Shown in pieces: positions 6,514 to 46,847 of a stretch of 64,000 bases of DNA. The DNA is from a virus. The DNA lies in the IMG/VR virus record IMGVR_UViG_3300037247_000810, positions 1 through 64,000 of that record; one strand, given 5' to 3'. The position numbers and the translations under genes are program-made. The notes under the pieces were generated by a model. The model was not told the DNA's origin. It saw nothing but the letters and a program-made list of their open reading frames with translations, and did no database searches. How positions within the stretch are numbered: the first letter of the stretch is position 1; every line of letters starts with the position of its first letter.

Positions 6514-6614
6514 CGAAGCAGTACCGCGACGATGATGGCAATGACGCAGATCACGTCGATGGCTACGCAAATCGTCATTGCCGTTAGGCACTTGGCAATC
6601 AGATCATAATTCAT
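6510..6614 (-). CDS. 34-aa single-TM peptide
   Basis: MNYDLIAKCLTAMTICVAIDVICVIAIIVAVLLR; ATGA overlaps with both neighbours. Confidence 0.55.
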   Translation of the reverse strand: MNYDLIAKCLTAMTICVAIDVICVIAIIVAVLLR

Positions 6615-7366
6615 CCGTACAACTCTCGCATACGCGGCTCTGCCACCTTGTCAATCAACTTCTTGTCGATGTCGACGCCGATGGCGTTGCGGCTTAGCTT
6701 CAAGGCAGCGACCATCGTAGTGCCGGTGCCTACCATTGGATCAAGAACCACGTCGCCCGGTAGCGTGAATAGCTCGATGTAGTGCTCCGCCTCGGCCTGG
6801 GATTGTGTCCAGCCCTCCGGGTGCTGACTCTTGTCCGGTGGCTCGCTGGTGAGCGTGTCGAAGCGCCACCAGCGCGTGTCGTGCAGGCGGCGGCAGGGAT
6901 GTCGACACTCAGCGAAGTTGGTCTCCCGCACTGGCTTCTCCCGGCCCTTCACCTTGCGCGTCTTGCCGGTGTCCGTGCGGCAGTCCTGCTTGCACTCCGG
7001 CGTACACATAACCTCATACTTGCCCTTGACGAAGATGAGCATGGGCTTCCACCGGCTCTTGACCCGCACGGGCCGCATGAGTGCGTTACCCTTCGGCGTG
7101 TGGAGCGAATCCATCCAAACGAACTTCAGGTGGCCGCCCAACTCCTCGATGACCGTCGGCAGATGGTACTGGCCGCTGTACGACACCAGCAGCCCGCCGT
7201 CCACAAGTACGCGGGCCGCTAGCTTGCTCAGTCCGCACCAGAGATCGAGGTATTGGCCCCCATAAGGCGGATCGGTGAAGATCATGTGTACGCTGTCGTC
7301 GGGGATGTGGTCAGCCGTCAGCTTATTGAAGTCCCCGCGATAGAAGTCGTACCAGGGTTTAGTCAT
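6611..7366 (-). CDS. second DNA methyltransferase (beta class)
   Basis: FTDPPY and VLDPMVGTGTT motifs; Cys-rich insertion. Confidence 0.88.
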   Translation of the reverse strand: MTKPWYDFYRGDFNKLTADHIPDDSVHMIFTDPPYGGQYLDLWCGLSKLAARVLVDGGLLVSYSGQYHLPTVIEELGGHLKFVWMDSLHTPKGNALMRPVRVKSRWKPMLIFVKGKYEVMCTPECKQDCRTDTGKTRKVKGREKPVRETNFAECRHPCRRLHDTRWWRFDTLTSEPPDKSQHPEGWTQSQAEAEHYIELFTLPGDVVLDPMVGTGTTMVAALKLSRNAIGVDIDKKLIDKVAEPRMRELYG

Positions 7367-42745: not shown

Positions 42746-42820
42746 TGGAGCCATCGGAGGGAATCGAACCCTCTCCTGCGGTTTACGAAACCGCTGCACA
42801 GCCACTTGTGCTTCGATGGC
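42746..42820 (-). tRNA. tRNA-Thr(CGT)
   Basis: Cloverleaf, loop TTCGTAA, CCA. Confidence 0.9.
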
Positions 42821-42906
42821 TGGTAGCCTCGGCGAGAGTCGAACTCGCACGCCGTTTCCGGCCGGGGCTTCTAAGACCCCTACGTCTACCATTCCGTCAC
42901 GAGGCT
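42821..42906 (-). tRNA. tRNA-Leu(TAG)
   Basis: Loop CTTAGAA, long variable arm; A1 overlaps upstream CCA. Confidence 0.9.
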
Positions 42907-42981
42907 GGTACACCTGGTAGGAGTCGAACCTACAATCTCTCGGATGTGAACCGAGCGCCTTAGCCTTTGGGCCACAGGTGC
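42906..42981 (-). tRNA. tRNA-Val(CAC)
   Basis: Loop TTCACAT. Confidence 0.9.
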
Positions 42982-43056
42982 TGGTGCTTCGGGACGGATT
43001 TGAACCGCCGACGCCGCGCTCTTCAGGCGCGCGCTCTACCCCTGAGCTACCGAAGC
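42982..43056 (-). tRNA. tRNA-Phe(GAA)
   Basis: Loop CTGAAGA. Confidence 0.92.
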
Positions 43057-43057
43057 G

Positions 43058-43134
<77 letters not shown>

Positions 43135-43209
43135 TGGAGCGGAAGAAGGGACTCGAACCCTCGACATTCTCGTTGGCAACGAGACATTCTACCACTGAAT
43201 TACTTCCGC
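43135..43209 (-). tRNA. tRNA-Gly(GCC)
   Basis: Loop TTGCCAA. Confidence 0.92.
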
Positions 43210-43296
43210 TGGTGTCACCGGCGAGAGTCGAACTCGCACCCCCTTGCGGGGACAAGGCTCTCAACCTTGCATGTCTACCTGTTCCATCACGGTGAC
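43210..43296 (-). tRNA. tRNA-Leu(GAG)
   Basis: Loop TTGAGAG, long variable arm. Confidence 0.92.
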
Positions 43297-43372
43297 TGGT
43301 GAACTCGGTAGGAATCGAACCTACGACATCCGACGTATCAGATCGGCGCTCTAACCCCTGAGCTACGAGTCC
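43297..43372 (-). tRNA. tRNA-Ile(GAT)
   Basis: Loop CTGATAC. Confidence 0.92.
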
Positions 43373-43448
43373 TGGTGACAGCGGGTGGACTTGAACCACC
43401 GGCCTTCGCCTTATGAGGGCGCTGCTCTACCAACTGAGCTACGCTGCC
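43373..43448 (-). tRNA. tRNA-Met/Ile2(CAT), elongator type
   Basis: Loop CTCATAA, paired G1:C72. Confidence 0.88.
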
Positions 43449-43526
43449 TGGTAGCCCCAGCAGGATTCGAACCTGCGACGTTCCGCTTAAGAGGCGGCTG
43501 CTCTGGCCGGACTGAGCTATGGGGCC
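43449..43526 (-). tRNA. tRNA-Lys(CTT)
   Basis: Loop CTCTTAA. Confidence 0.92.
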
Positions 43527-43612
43527 TGGTGCGCAAGGAGGGAATCGAACCCTCAAACCCTAGTGGGCACACGGTTCTGAGCCGTGCGTGTTTACCGTTT
43601 CACCACTCGCGC
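43527..43612 (-). tRNA. tRNA-Leu(CAG)
   Basis: Loop CTCAGAA. Confidence 0.92.
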
Positions 43613-43700
43613 TGGTGGGGCAGGTAGGACTCGAACCTACGGAGACCGTTAAGGCCAGCAGGGTTACAGCCTGCCGCAATTGCCGCTATGCGACTACCCC
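43613..43700 (-). tRNA. tRNA-Tyr(GTA)
   Basis: Loop CTGTAAC, long variable arm (bacterial type). Confidence 0.92.
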
Positions 43701-43702
43701 TT

Positions 43703-43776
43703 TGGAGACCCCGGCCGGATTCGAACCGACGATAACCGGGTTGCAGCCGGTTGCCTTACCACTTGGCCACGGGGTC
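43703..43776 (-). tRNA. tRNA-Cys(GCA)
   Basis: Loop CTGCAAC, U73. Confidence 0.92.
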
Positions 43777-43849
43777 TGGCACACCTGGTAGGAGTCGAAC
43801 CTACTCTCACGGGTTTGGAGTCCGGTCGGCGCATCCCGCGCTCAGGTGC
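43777..43849 (-). tRNA. tRNA-Trp(CCA)
   Basis: Loop CTCCAAA; short D loop. Confidence 0.85.
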
Positions 43850-43924
43850 TGGCTGTCGGACTAGGATTCGAACCTAGAACTTCCTGATTCAGAGTCAGGC
43901 GTCATACCGTTAGACCATCCGACA
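43850..43924 (-). tRNA. tRNA-Gln(CTG)
   Basis: Loop CTCTGAA, U1:A72. Confidence 0.92.
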
Positions 43925-43998
43925 TGGATGCGGGAGCAGGAATCGAACCTGCATTCACGGGTTCAAAGTCCGACGTCCGACCTTTAGACGATCCCGCA
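43925..43998 (-). tRNA. tRNA-Gln(TTG)
   Basis: Loop CTTTGAA, U1:A72. Confidence 0.9.
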
Positions 43999-44085
43999 TG
44001 GTGCGCCGGGAGGGAGTCGAACCCTCATGCCCCTGGAAGCACACGGGTTTGAGCCGTGCGTGTCTACCAATTTCACCACCGACGC
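43999..44085 (-). tRNA. tRNA-Leu(CAA)
   Basis: Loop CTCAAAC. Confidence 0.92.
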
Positions 44086-44163
44086 TGGTGGGCCAGGTGG
44101 GAGTCGAACCCACAAGAGACACGGGGTTTAAGCCCGCCGCATATACCATTCTGCTACTGGCCT
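44086..44163 (-). tRNA. tRNA-Leu(TAA), short variable region
   Basis: Loop CTTAAAC. Confidence 0.88.
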
Positions 44164-44239
44164 TGGCACCAGAGGTAGGACTCGAACCTACAACCAACCG
44201 CTTAACAGGCGGCCGCGCTACCTATTGCGCCACTCTGGT
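44164..44239 (-). tRNA. tRNA-Asn(GTT)
   Basis: Loop CTGTTAA. Confidence 0.92.
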
Positions 44240-44308
44240 TGGAGCCAGGGGCGGGATTCGAACCCGCGTCTACAGACTTACAAGGCCCTAGACAACCTGT
44301 TACCTGGC
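44240..44308 (-). tRNA. tRNA-Thr(TGT), D-arm degenerate
   Basis: Loop CTTGTAA, intact T arm, 69 nt. Confidence 0.7.
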
Positions 44309-44398
44309 TGGCGAAGCGAGCAGGATTCGAACCTGCGAGACCTTACGGCCCACCGCGTTAGCAGCGCGGCGCATTCAACCTGACTCTGCCACCGCTTC
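44309..44398 (-). tRNA. tRNA-Ser(GCT)
   Basis: Loop CTGCTAA, long variable arm. Confidence 0.92.
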
Positions 44399-44410
44399 TG
44401 GCACCGCTTC

Positions 44411-44486
44411 TGGCACCCTCGGCAGGAGTTGAACCCGCGACATCCTGGTTCGAAGCCAGGCACTCTGTCCACTGAGCTACGAGGGC
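44411..44486 (-). tRNA. tRNA-Arg(TCG)
   Basis: Loop CTTCGAA. Confidence 0.92.
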
Positions 44487-44564
44487 TGGTATCCGTGAGA
44501 GGGCTCGAACCTCCGGCCTCAGCCTTCGCAGGGCTGCGCTCTTATCCAACTGAGCTACACGGAC
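44487..44564 (-). tRNA. tRNA-Arg(GCG)
   Basis: Loop CTGCGAA. Confidence 0.9.
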
Positions 44565-44651
44565 TGGCGGAAGGTGAGGGATTCGAACCCCCAAGGCCCA
44601 TCACGCCCAACCGCTTTCAAGGCGGTGTACCACACCAATGGCAGACCTTCC
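44565..44651 (-). tRNA. tRNA-Ser(TGA)
   Basis: Loop CTTGAAA. Confidence 0.9.
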
Positions 44652-44739
44652 TGGAGGAGACGGTGGGATTCGAACCCACGAGACCTTGCAGCCCACTCGC
44701 TTTCGAGGCGAGCGCTTTCATCCACTCAGCCACATCTCC
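44652..44739 (-). tRNA. tRNA-Ser(CGA)
   Basis: Loop CTCGAAA. Confidence 0.92.
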
Positions 44740-44827
44740 TGGCGGACGCTGTAGGATTCGAACCTACGGTGCCTTGCGACACACACGCTTTCCAGACGTG
44801 CCCGTTAAACCACTCCGGCAAGCATCC
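44740..44827 (-). tRNA. tRNA-Ser(GGA)
   Basis: Loop CTGGAAA. Confidence 0.92.
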
Positions 44828-44913
44828 GTGTGCGGCGGCCTGCATCACAGTGTGCCTACTAACATATAGGGTGGAGCCCAATGTTTCGGCACACGCCGCC
44901 GCCATCCACATTC
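44828..44913 (-). ncRNA. unknown hairpin RNA with loop-E-like motif
   Basis: GCGGCGGC/GCCGCCGC, GUGUGCC/GGCACAC and ACAU/AUGU helices. Confidence 0.5.
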
Positions 44914-44960
44914 TGTGTCGGCTGCGGGAATCGAACCCACCTAACACCAGTTTAGCCGAC
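44914..44960 (-). ncRNA. mini-tRNA 2 (acceptor + T arm only)
   Basis: Perfect 7-bp GUCGGCU/AGCCGAC; GUGGG-UUCGAUU-CCCGC. Confidence 0.78.
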
Positions 44961-45037
44961 TGGCGACCCCTACGGGATTTGAACCCGTGACCTCCGCCTT
45001 GACAGGGCGGCGAGCACAACCACTGCTCCAAGGGGCC
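44961..45037 (-). tRNA. tRNA-Asp(GTC)
   Basis: Loop CTGTCAA. Confidence 0.92.
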
Positions 45038-45122
45038 TCGTTGCTAGCGCAGGTGCCCTTGGCCTTGGCTCCCCGACCGACCCGCTAGCTAGTCGACCGG
45101 ATCAACGCTGTACCGAAGGGCT

Positions 45123-45198
45123 TGGTGGCGGAGGCAGGATTCGAACCGACGTTCTCTTGCTTATGAGGCAAGCGAGATGACCACTTCTCCACTCCGCT
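45123..45198 (-). tRNA. tRNA-Met(CAT), initiator-like
   Basis: A1:C72 mismatch, fMet-like body, lacks 3 G:C anticodon-stem pairs. Confidence 0.85.
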
Positions 45199-45273
45199 TG
45201 GCGGCCCATCAGGGAATCGAACCCTGCTCTGATGCTTGAGGGGCATCTATCCTATCCGATAGACGAATGGGCC
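45199..45273 (-). tRNA. tRNA-Glu(CTC)
   Basis: Loop CCCTCAA (C33). Confidence 0.85.
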
Positions 45274-45349
45274 TGGTCGGGACGGCAGGATTCTAACCTG
45301 CGATTCCGTGCTCCCAAAGCACGTGTGTTGAACACTACACTACGCCCCG
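45274..45349 (-). tRNA. tRNA-Pro(TGG)
   Basis: Loop TTTGGGA; T loop TTAGAAT. Confidence 0.88.
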
Positions 45350-45426
45350 TGGTCGGAGTTGCAAGACTCGAACTTGCGGCCCCCGCGTCCCGAACGCGGT
45401 GCTCTTCCTGGCTGAGCTAAACTCCG
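45350..45426 (-). tRNA. tRNA-Pro(CGG)
   Basis: Loop TTCGGGA. Confidence 0.92.
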
Positions 45427-45502
45427 TGGGGTGATCGAGGAGATTTGAACTCCCGCTAAGAGGGCCACAACCTCTTGTGCTAACCACTACACTACGACCA
45501 CC
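45427..45502 (-). tRNA. tRNA-His(GTG)
   Basis: Loop TTGTGGC; encoded G-1:C73. Confidence 0.92.
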
Positions 45503-45503
45503 T

Positions 45504-45577
45504 TGGAGCGCCTAGCGGGAATCGAACCCGCGAACTCTGCTTGGAAGGCAGATATGTTGCCCCTACATCACAGGCGC
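45504..45577 (-). tRNA. tRNA-Gly(TCC)
   Basis: Loop CTTCCAA. Confidence 0.92.
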
Positions 45578-45652
45578 TGGTACGGGCGGTGGGACTCGAA
45601 CCCACACCGAACGGTTTAAAAGACCGCTGCTCTGCCTTCGAGCTACACCCGC
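45578..45652 (-). tRNA. tRNA-Lys(TTT)
   Basis: Loop CTTTTAA. Confidence 0.92.
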
Positions 45653-45728
45653 TGGTAGCGTCGACGGGATTCGAACCCGCTCCGTCCGGTTTGAAAGACC
45701 GGCGACCTATCCTGTAGTCGACGACGCT
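45653..45728 (-). tRNA. tRNA-Glu(TTC)
   Basis: Loop CTTTCAA. Confidence 0.92.
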
Positions 45729-45804
45729 TGGAGCCTTCGGCGAGATTCGAACTCGCTGCCTCGTTCTTACCAAGAACGCGCTCTACCAATTGAGCTACGA
45801 AGGC
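45729..45804 (-). tRNA. tRNA-Thr(GGT)
   Basis: Loop TTGGTAA. Confidence 0.92.
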
Positions 45805-45812
45805 TTGTTATC

Positions 45813-46142
45813 GAGCAATCGGGTCGTAAGCCGCTTTCTGTTTCTCTGCCTACATCTCTCTAGCTGTCACGCGGTCGCTGCCAAACTACCCGCCGCGCCT
45901 CCGGCCCCCTAACGCAATCCGTCTTTTCACACGACCTCCGTGTCTCCGGGTCTCGGCAGGCTCGGTGGCCCGCTACCCGTAGTCGCTGTTCGTGACATCT
46001 CGCCGGTCTCTTGCCCGACGGCCCGCCTTATTAGGGACGGGTAGGTTGTTTGGCGGCCGAGCGGACTTTCCTCAAGGGCCTCGTGGTGCAAACGCCTCGC
46101 GGCTCCCACCAGACGATCCTGCGTAGGCACGTCCGATTGCTC
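45813..46142 (-). ncRNA. rnpB: RNase P RNA (ribozyme), reduced architecture
   Basis: P1 GAGCAAUCGG/CCGAUUGCUC; P2 UGCCUAC/GUAGGCA; CR-I GAGGAAAGUCC; CR-IV AGAGAGAU; CR-V ACAGAAAGCGGCUUA; P4 CCGCU/AGCGG. Confidence 0.9.
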
Positions 46143-46145
46143 TCT

Positions 46146-46196
46146 TGGCAGCCGGTCGCGGAATCGAACCGCACGGAGGTCAACCAGACCCCGGCT
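46146..46196 (-). ncRNA. mini-tRNA 3 (acceptor + T arm, GCCA end)
   Basis: AGCCGG/CCGGCU; UGCGG-UUCGAUU-CCGCG; directly 5' of the RNase P RNA. Confidence 0.78.
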
Positions 46197-46271
46197 TGGT
46201 GCCCTGAGCGGGAATCGAACCCGCATCTGCCGCTTAGGAGGCGGCTGCGCTATCCATTACGCCATCAGGGT
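46197..46271 (-). tRNA. tRNA-Arg(CCT)
   Basis: Loop CTCCTAA. Confidence 0.9.
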
Positions 46272-46346
46272 TCAATAGGCATCCGTGCCGATGGCCTTCC
46301 TGGCCCCAATACCACGGCCCGCCTGAGTTAAGGCACACGGGCCGGA

Positions 46347-46395
46347 CGGTCGACTGCGCGGGGATTTGACCCCATAGCGCCAAGCGCCGCAGCCG
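46347..46395 (-). ncRNA. mini-tRNA 4 (degenerate T arm)
   Basis: CGGCUGC/GCAGUCG + ACCG; GGGG-UCAAAU-CCCC. Confidence 0.55.
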
Positions 46396-46396
46396 T

Positions 46397-46466
46397 TGGC
46401 ACCCTCGGTGGGAGTCGAACCCACGTTTGGCCGCTTAGAAGGCGGCGCATCGTCCCCGACGAGGGC
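46397..46466 (-). tRNA. tRNA-Arg(TCT), truncated D arm
   Basis: Loop CTTCTAA; 70 nt. Confidence 0.8.
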
Positions 46467-46542
46467 TGGTGAGCGATGAGGGAGTCGAACCCCCGGCACC
46501 CTGGATGTAAGCCAGGTGCTCTGGCCTCTGAGCTAATCGCCC
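46467..46542 (-). tRNA. tRNA-Val(TAC)
   Basis: Loop CTTACAT. Confidence 0.92.
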
Positions 46543-46617
46543 TGGTGGAGATGACAGGATTCGAACCTGCGACTTTCAGTCTGCCAGACTGACACTCTCC
46601 CGCTGAGTTACATCCCC
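46543..46617 (-). tRNA. tRNA-Ala(GGC)
   Basis: Loop CTGGCAG; G3:U70. Confidence 0.92.
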
Positions 46618-46693
46618 TGGTGGAGCACGCGGGACTCGAACCCGCAACCTCCTGCGTGCAAGGCAGGCGCACTCCCAATTGTGCTAGCACCCC
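46618..46693 (-). tRNA. tRNA-Ala(TGC)
   Basis: Loop CTTGCAC; G3:U70. Confidence 0.92.
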
Positions 46694-46769
46694 TGGTGGA
46701 GACGACAGGACTCGAACCTGCTACCTCGTCGTTGCGAACGACGCACTCTCCCTGCTGAGCTACGCCCCC
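46694..46769 (-). tRNA. tRNA-Ala(CGC)
   Basis: Loop TTCGCAA; G3:U70. Confidence 0.92.
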
Positions 46770-46818: not shown

Positions 46819-46847
46819 AATATACCGGATCGCGGAATACTTGTCAA
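46819..46847 (-). promoter_or_regulatory. strong sigma70-type promoter of the tRNA/RNase P operon
   Basis: TTGACA-N17-TATATT, about 50 nt upstream of the first tRNA; AT-rich upstream. Confidence 0.85.

Follow-up and report, generated by a model that had tools for sequence, protein, structure and literature searches.

The window, meaning the whole 64-kb stretch of DNA that was analyzed, covers the opening 64 kb of an IMG/VR virus record of 103,459 bp, whose completeness was estimated by CheckV at 82%. The record encodes a tape measure protein, a portal, a large terminase (TerL), a primase/helicase, and a DNA methyltransferase, and on this predicted gene content it is clearly that of a tailed phage. 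G+C content is uniform, at ~0.60. Because its TerL has an identity of 30% or less to any of 50,697 GenBank phage records, this marine-sediment phage is considered part of an uncultured lineage with no named host.

The minus strand of the window carries a long tRNA operon (Table 1), in which neighboring tRNAs are separated by no spacer at all at 28 of the 39 tRNA junctions and lie within 2 nt of each other at 4 more. The operon is headed by a sigma-70-type promoter-like site, which suggests a bacterial host. A gap of 392 nt, from tRNA-Arg(CCT) to tRNA-Thr(GGT), is mostly taken up by the element examined here, an RNase P RNA homolog that has tRNA-Arg(CCT) and a mini-tRNA on its 5' side. Mini-tRNAs sit ahead of non-tRNA inserts in the array; a second one, at 46347-46395 (minus strand) and likewise without D and anticodon arms, matched the mascRNA model RF01684 with 27.9 bits.

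Table 1. Features of the tRNA operon and of the RNase P RNA gene in the window
Feature	Position	Strand	Remarks
Sigma-70-type promoter-like site, TTGACA-17-TATATT	46819..46847	(-)	11/12 consensus match only; ~50 nt upstream of first tRNA
tRNA operon	42746..46769	(-)	40 tRNA genes (ARAGORN, Rfam), all with encoded CCA
Mini-tRNA (acceptor stem and T arm, CCA end)	46146..46196	(-)	3 nt upstream of RNase P RNA; without D/anticodon arm
RNase P RNA gene, P1 5' strand to P1 3' strand	45813..46142	(-)	330 nt; RF00010 global match, six homologs, covariation
P1, GAGCAAUCGG (46142-46133)/CCGAUUGCUC (45822-45813)	46142-46133 with 45813-45823	(-)	10 perfect pairs joining the ends; 5 double-sided changes, n = 7
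P2, UGCCUAC (46129-46123)/GUAGGCA (45853-45847)	46122-46129 with 45847-45854	(-)	7-8 pairs
P3, extended hairpin with inner GCC-GCGA-GGC tetraloop hairpin	46073..46121	(-)	Helices 3-6 of the fold
CR-I GAGGAAAGUCC (46073-46063), after P3, and P4 5' strand	46060..46073	(-)	Pairs with 45828-45835
P5 5' strand	46055..46059	(-)	Pairs with 45902-45906; 4/5 pairs with double-sided changes
P6 5' strand, CAAAC, in J5/7	46048..46052	(-)	Pseudoknot with GUUUG 45882-45886 in P15 loop
P7 5' strand	46042-46045	(-)	Pairs with 45908-45911; within 46001..46045
P8 hairpin	46022-46041	(-)	Placed here by Rfam alignment
P9 hairpin	46001-46020	(-)	Placed here by Rfam alignment
Specificity-domain core	45923..45991	(-)	CR-II-like, P12-like hairpin, extra hairpin, CR-III-like
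CR-II-like GAACAGCGACUAC	45979-45991	(-)	9/13 columns invariant; conserved block AACAGCGAC
P12-like hairpin	45956-45973	(-)	Length varies among 7 sequences
Extra hairpin, between P12 and CR-III	45931-45954	(-)	
CR-III-like GUGUGAAAAG	45923-45932	(-)	8/10 columns invariant; conserved block GUGAAAAG
P15 hairpin	45869..45898	(-)	Stem: 6/8 pairs with double-sided changes
CR-IV CAGCUAGAGAGAU (also CUAGAGAGAUG)	45854..45866	(-)	Runs into P2 3' strand; without P18
CR-V ACAGAAAGCGGCUUAC, containing P4 3' strand AGCGGCUU	45826..45841	(-)	Rfam alignment, covariation, column conservation
tRNA-Thr(GGT)	45729..45804	(-)	8 nt downstream of RNase P RNA

The array also contains elements that the tRNA searches left out. 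Between tRNA-Gln(CTG) and tRNA-Cys, at 43777-43849 of the minus strand, lies a 73-nt tRNA-shaped element with a GCCA end that was missed by ARAGORN and at the Rfam cut-off. Its anticodon loop, CUCCAAA, is that of Trp(CCA), and the set of called tRNAs is otherwise without Trp; a matching gap of 70-74 nt is retained in six related arrays. In related contigs, elements of ~80 nt (L039:3467-3550, L028:6762-6841, and L040:5865-5944) exceeded the Rfam tmRNA cut-off, with 57-66 versus 47 bits; they are tRNA-sized and look like the tRNA-like domain only. Longer non-tRNA gaps of 355, 536, 531, and 475 nt were observed in the array of L040, as were non-tRNA stretches in L038:942-1422, L042:510-979, L034:403-805, and L025:2200-2563. 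These stretches of 350-540 nt could represent additional structured RNAs or ORFs of small size.

Motifs, covariance-model match, and assembly of the RNA gene

RNase P RNA, which trims new tRNAs, is counted among the housekeeping ribozymes of the cell. An earlier note on this DNA had read the element as a phage-encoded member of this class, and the motifs on which that reading was built (P1, P2, CR-I, CR-IV, CR-V, and P4) were all recovered on the minus strand at the positions that it had assigned to them. The CR-I motif GAGGAAAGUCC, CR-IV motif CUAGAGAGAUG, and CR-V motif ACAGAAAGCGGCUUA match the consensus of the bacterial class A model RF00010 (RNaseP_bact_a) and occur in the right order. 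CR-IV aligns to the Rfam consensus CuAGAugAAUG, with AGAGAGAU immediately 5' of the P2 3' strand, and P4 is formed by AAG(U)CCGCU with AGCGGCUU, including the usual bulged U.

At curated cut-offs, Rfam reported only tRNAs. Under relaxed thresholds, RF00010 gave an end-to-end match (model positions 1-367) to 45811-46140, with an E-value of 3.4e-6 on 781 nt and, on the 103-kb record as a whole, of 1.1e-7, which is beyond what chance would give. The covariance-model search that had been proposed as a check therefore yielded a full-length match, but one that, at 26 bits, missed the gathering cut-off of 100. RF00010 was the best RNase P clan member for the window RNA, and its alignment covers P1, P2, P3, CR-I/P4, P5, P8, P9, CR-IV, and CR-V, with most of the specificity domain skipped. 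In relatives of this phage the RF00010 scores were weaker still, with 19 bits for L042 and 12.7 bits, over the 3' part only, for L038; the archaeal model RF00373 was seen solely as a local match of 65 nt in L041 (24.9 bits). The stability of the single-sequence fold was not unusual (z = -1.35) and is uninformative.

The earlier note had also left room for a host fragment joined to the phage by misassembly. A Logan contig from a marine-sediment run spans 45780-45941 and bridges tRNA-Thr into the RNA, and another, spanning 45923-46426, runs through the RNA, the mini-tRNA, tRNA-Arg, and beyond with zero differences. Depth across these bridging contigs is even and like that of the flanks. Both junctions are thus bridged by independent contigs, and the element is not a misassembly. 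Diverged copies were detected by Logan in cold-seep and other sediment runs. No RNA-seq run holding this stretch was found among public runs, which says nothing on its expression.

Homologs, covariation, and architecture

A protein-database search returned 36 close terminase homologs, and relatives of the phage were located by scanning metagenome contigs with an alignment of these homologs (A1); a search of viral contigs with TerL alone had found no relative. Six distinct contigs (L028, L039, L041, L038, L040, and L042) span the matching array region; L055 and L056 of IMG/VR lie on the contig of L041. Their TerL proteins are 47-85% identical to that of the window, and their arrays hold 17-39 called tRNAs per contig, all on one strand, with encoded CCA ends and mostly zero spacers as in the window. 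In all six, a homolog of the RNA lies directly 5' of tRNA-Thr(GGT), the neighbor common to all seven members. The search for homologs beside tRNA arrays, suggested as a check in the earlier note, thus gave a positive result, at the same array position in each related contig.

The homologous RNAs are 60-80% identical to the window RNA, the lowest value coming from the phage whose terminase diverges most. Their lengths are 325-330 nt, or 387-390 nt in two insert-bearing relatives. L040 has a 38-nt insertion in P3. Because the indels among homologs measure 1, 2, 22, and 38 nt, and are not multiples of three, a protein-coding reading of the element was ruled out.

On the 5' side of the RNA, a mini-tRNA lies 3 nt away in five of the seven members (window, L028, L039, L041, and L038). 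L040 has no mini-tRNA there; a G+C-rich hairpin and an A+T-rich stretch (L040:4323-4401) precede the RNA instead. A promoter of its own, read by eye ahead of the L040 RNA, was not confirmed by a consensus scan. In L041, the RNase P RNA is separated from tRNA-Thr by an insert (L041:6484-7086) with a second mini-tRNA and a 170-aa ORF (6574-7083). No Pfam family was identified in this ORF, and the insert may be mobile.

The window RNA and its six relatives were aligned (A2, seven sequences from related phages, which are not independent samples) and scored against a class A fold consisting of P1-P9, a short P11, the P12-like hairpin, one extra hairpin, and P15. Standard pairs occupied 96.1% of the cells, compared with 35-41% when pairing partners were slid by 1-3 columns. 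Double-sided changes were present in 39 of the 89 pairs, versus 4-8 in the slid controls and a mean of 16.5 after shuffling, and the observed pairing values were reached by none of 500 shuffles. P1, P2, P3, P5, P7, P8, P9, and P15 follow the canonical order with 88-100% of cells paired, and P4, P5, P6, P7, and P15 are each 100% paired; in P2, double-sided changes affect 3 of the 8 pairs.

Both pseudoknots contributed to this signal. In P4, 3 of the 8 pairs have double-sided changes, the bulged U is invariant in all seven sequences, and L041 replaces G-C with A-U at an otherwise almost universal position. Of the 5 pairs of the P6 pseudoknot, which joins J5/7 to the P15 loop, 4 have double-sided changes; as P16/17 is absent, the P6 3' strand falls within that loop. 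Conservation is concentrated outside the helices: invariant columns number 8 of 13 in CR-I, 11 of 13 in CR-IV, 10 of 14 in CR-V, and 5 of 6 in the L15-type GGGUAG, within which GGUAG is invariant, as opposed to 2 of 10 in P1 and 1 of 6 in the P15 stem. In the P15 loop this GGGUAG motif (GGU at 45888-45890) is followed by the P6 3' strand. The covariation supports a predicted fold that is specific to RNase P RNA and includes the P4 and P6 pseudoknots.

From the catalytic domain, only P16/P17 and P18 are missing. For P13/14, P16/17, and P18, the seven-sequence alignment offers neither room nor pairing. Approximately 190 nt between the two strands of P5 hold P7-P9, two further hairpins, and two conserved blocks, AACAGCGAC and GUGAAAAG, which flank the P12-like and extra hairpins in the region that Infernal left unaligned. 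Similar motifs, AACAGNGACGA (CR-II) and GUGAAACG (CR-III), occur in compact RNase P RNAs with Rfam scores above 150 bits. P10/P11 amounts to just 2-3 short pairs, one of which covaries (alignment columns 216 and 311). The two blocks flanking the hairpins are, by inference, likely CR-II and CR-III, and the assignment of the specificity-domain helices to named type A helices is likewise inferred, resting on motif likeness and this one covarying pair. The earlier identification of the conserved regions of the catalytic domain was sound, and what it had overlooked is the inferred specificity-domain core (P7-P12 with the CR-II/CR-III-like blocks) and the P6 pseudoknot.

Compared with known RNase P RNAs, the closest likeness is to bacterial class A (RF00010), represented by E. 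coli M1 RNA (rnpB) and the Thermotoga maritima P RNA, with which the window RNA shares the helices P1-P9 and P15 in their order and pairing and, by inference, P10-P12, as well as the P4 pseudoknot with its bulged U, the P6 pseudoknot, CR-I, CR-IV, CR-V, and likely CR-II and CR-III, the L15 GGU, and a two-domain layout. The P6 pseudoknot is a hallmark of type A, in which P13/P14, P16/P17, and P18 are common but not universal. Unlike the bacterial RNAs, the window RNA is phage-encoded and sits in a tRNA operon of a record without rnpA, lacks P13/14, P16/17, and P18, has an extra hairpin between P12 and CR-III, and forms P15 as a simple hairpin whose loop bears both the GGU and the P6 strand. Archaeal type A RNAs (RF00373) also lack P13, P14, and P18 while keeping P6 and two domains, but they retain P16/17 and partner with 4-5 proteins, and the best match of the window RNA is bacterial. 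Type T RNA of Pyrobaculum (RF02357) is likewise reduced in size while its catalytic core is intact; its specificity domain is almost entirely gone, whereas the window RNA keeps P7-P9, an inferred P10-P12, and the CR-II/CR-III-like motifs. Phage tmRNAs, GOLLD, and ROOL are, like the window RNA, structured non-tRNA RNAs within phage tRNA clusters, but they are not RNase P RNAs, and it is the window RNA that has the RNase P-specific motifs and pseudoknots.

RNase P RNA-like loci in other viral contigs

To our knowledge, no phage RNase P RNA has been reported, and a full-text literature search, with incomplete coverage, found no report of one. When the window RNA, the L042 RNA, and two other phage RNase P RNAs were compared by blastn with the 50,697 GenBank phage records, they returned tRNA matches or nothing.

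IMG/VR was scanned for GGAAAGTCC followed by ACAGAANNNGGCTTA in three gap classes, with approximately one chance match expected per scan by our own estimate. The three scans recovered 7, 15, and 25 contigs, giving 47 contigs with the CR-I to CR-V pattern (loci L067-L127). RF00010 was run on 25 of these records and matched all 25, with 22-264 bits. In ~26 of the 47, the motif lies inside a tRNA array and on the same strand, and the downstream tRNA begins 14-24 nt past the motif in most of these array cases and 75-80 nt past it in a few. The array cases include a complete genome of 96.9 kb with terminal repeats, 37 tRNAs, and a tmRNA (G006), as well as complete huge-phage genomes of 215 kb (G008) and 463 kb (G022). 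In a 527-kb genome (G014) the pattern match lies away from tRNAs. Another ~10 of the 47 contigs share one size, have the match at a contig end, and are without tRNAs; these look like host rnpB beside proviruses.

A first pattern, GAGGAAAGTCC N205-235 ACAGAAA, had given 20 matches that were rejected as chance occurrences in coding DNA, with the exception of L014. At that locus (record G026, 96434-96878), RF00010 scored 58.2 bits over 445 nt right after two tRNAs; the record is a complete phage genome of 127.9 kb with terminal repeats, and an apparent ORF-bearing insertion lies inside the match.

Two family-specific patterns were also scanned against the genomes of 185,579 prokaryote species, one genome each, and gave 0 and then 10 matches, with no true counterpart of the window RNA among them. 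The 10 matches were attributed to chance, as none fits the A2 profile (nhmmer) and a tRNA is present at only one of the loci. Judged from these surveys, putative RNase P RNA genes are recurrent in phage tRNA arrays, and the window family is one strongly diverged lineage among them. A general link between carriage of an RNase P RNA and zero-spacer CCA arrays was considered and dropped, as it holds in some lineages only.

Putative function and alternative readings

Taken together, the motifs, the RF00010 match, the six syntenic homologs, the covariation, and the tailed-phage record uphold the reading of the element as a phage-encoded RNase P RNA, although its catalysis remains an inference. We regard it as close to certain that the window RNA is truly homologous to RNase P RNA and is kept under selection by a phage lineage. 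That it acts as a tRNA 5'-maturation ribozyme during infection is, in our judgment, probable. The explanation that we favor as a whole, function included, and hold with good but not full confidence, is that the element is a genuine phage gene, inherited vertically, and that it encodes a compact RNase P RNA of the bacterial type (class A-like).

Under this explanation, the RNA would probably share a transcript with the 40 tRNAs, started at the promoter-like site (46847-46819), and an RNase P cut at the 5' end of tRNA-Thr(GGT), 8 nt downstream, would free its 3' end. In E. coli, the GGU of L15 binds the 3'-CCA of tRNA. The L15-type GGU loop kept in the window RNA could pair with tRNA 3'-CCA in the same manner, for which there are no binding data, and the reduced specificity domain (P7-P12 and the CR-II/CR-III-like blocks) could read the tRNA elbow. 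The most likely job of the RNA, inferred and not demonstrated, would be to cut the phage tRNA precursors during infection, adding to or replacing the RNase P capacity of the host. Its protein partner is probably host RnpA, again by inference: the earlier note had seen no rnpA-like ORF, and a search for the Pfam family Ribonuclease_P (PF00825) in the 103-kb record, which is 82% complete, agreed in finding no match.

The arrangement of the array gives this putative activity a particular reach. With CCA encoded and no spacer, a single RNase P cut at a junction would produce the mature 5' end of one tRNA together with the CCA 3' end of the tRNA preceding it, and therefore finish two ends. Such junctions would then require RNase P as their main endonuclease.

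A ribozyme with shifted specificity or autonomy is an alternative to which we give only a small chance. The RNA would be truly catalytic but would work protein-free or with an unrecognized phage protein, and its targets would be CCA|+1 junctions or non-tRNA RNAs, whether mini-tRNA-flanked or from the host. Its unusual architecture, without P13/14, P16/17, and P18 and with the extra hairpin between P12 and CR-III, is compatible with such a shift, as are the mini-tRNAs ahead of non-tRNA inserts, the lack of rnpA in the record, and the J5/15 sequence, which is UAU, UAG, or GAG in this family (GAG in the window) and CAA in the compact RNAs that score above 150 bits. An idea that a U of J5/15 pairs with A(-1) of CCA junctions was dropped, since J5/15 of the window is GAG. 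However, nothing in the sequence demands a changed specificity, as the core and L15 are canonical, and known bacterial RNase P RNAs require protein in vivo, which speaks against autonomy.

We also considered, as quite improbable, that the RNA does not cut at all and is a look-alike, a decoy that sequesters RnpA of the host, or other factors binding RNase P, and thereby disables the maturation of host tRNAs. Such a role has reportedly been discussed for the RNase P-like RNA of camelpox virus. That RNA, the only viral precedent that we found, showed no pre-tRNA cleavage in vitro (PMC3001073), and a decoy would also fit a record that is without rnpA and conserves the protein-contacting regions CR-IV, CR-V, and P2/P3. 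The two RNAs are alike in being virus-encoded and in resembling RNase P RNA; the camelpox RNA, however, comes from a eukaryotic virus and has no tRNA array, whereas the window RNA conserves the full core, with covariation, and lies beside 40 putative substrates. These 40 tRNAs themselves need RNase P, mostly for zero-spacer precursors, so that blocking the enzyme would harm the phage, and the L15 GGU, the P6 pseudoknot, and the CR-II/CR-III-like elbow motifs are conserved even though a protein decoy would not need them. Given this dependence of the phage on RNase P, and its conservation of elements that bind substrate, we consider a decoy role unlikely.

A functionless, decaying fragment of host rnpB, or a host piece misassembled into the contig, has next to nothing left in its favor beyond the low Rfam score and the ~10 contig-end matches resembling host rnpB in other records, and is already contradicted by the single syntenic spot in seven phage contigs from several samples, the compensatory changes and invariant catalytic motifs, the unitig-level contigs bridging both flanks at even depth, the uniform G+C content, and the lack of a true family-pattern match in the 185,579 species genomes.

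If the preferred reading, that of a phage gene for a tRNA-maturing RNase P RNA, is extended beyond this locus, phage tRNA operons would commonly carry their own RNase P ribozyme, with the window family as one deep, highly diverged lineage, in which ribozyme and zero-spacer CCA array would together form a self-contained maturation module. In such a module, one endonuclease RNA made by the phage would generate both ends of 40 tRNAs, perhaps independently of the RNase P RNA of the host and possibly with no dedicated protein. We put this extension forward only tentatively.

With a conserved and structurally complete RNase P RNA in phages, the translation-related functions encoded by viruses would come to include a catalytic RNA, and this would suggest that tRNA 5' maturation is limiting for phages expressing large tRNA sets. 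Genes of this kind are missed at curated covariance-model cut-offs, as illustrated here by 26 bits versus a required 100. They provide natural compact RNase P RNAs, of ~330 nt in this family and 200-300 nt elsewhere, for studies of minimal catalysis and substrate reading, and the zero-spacer CCA arrays provide a model, open to direct testing, of one enzyme generating the two ends of a tRNA. Should the self-contained module prove true, a class of viral ribozyme genes without a published description would have been found.
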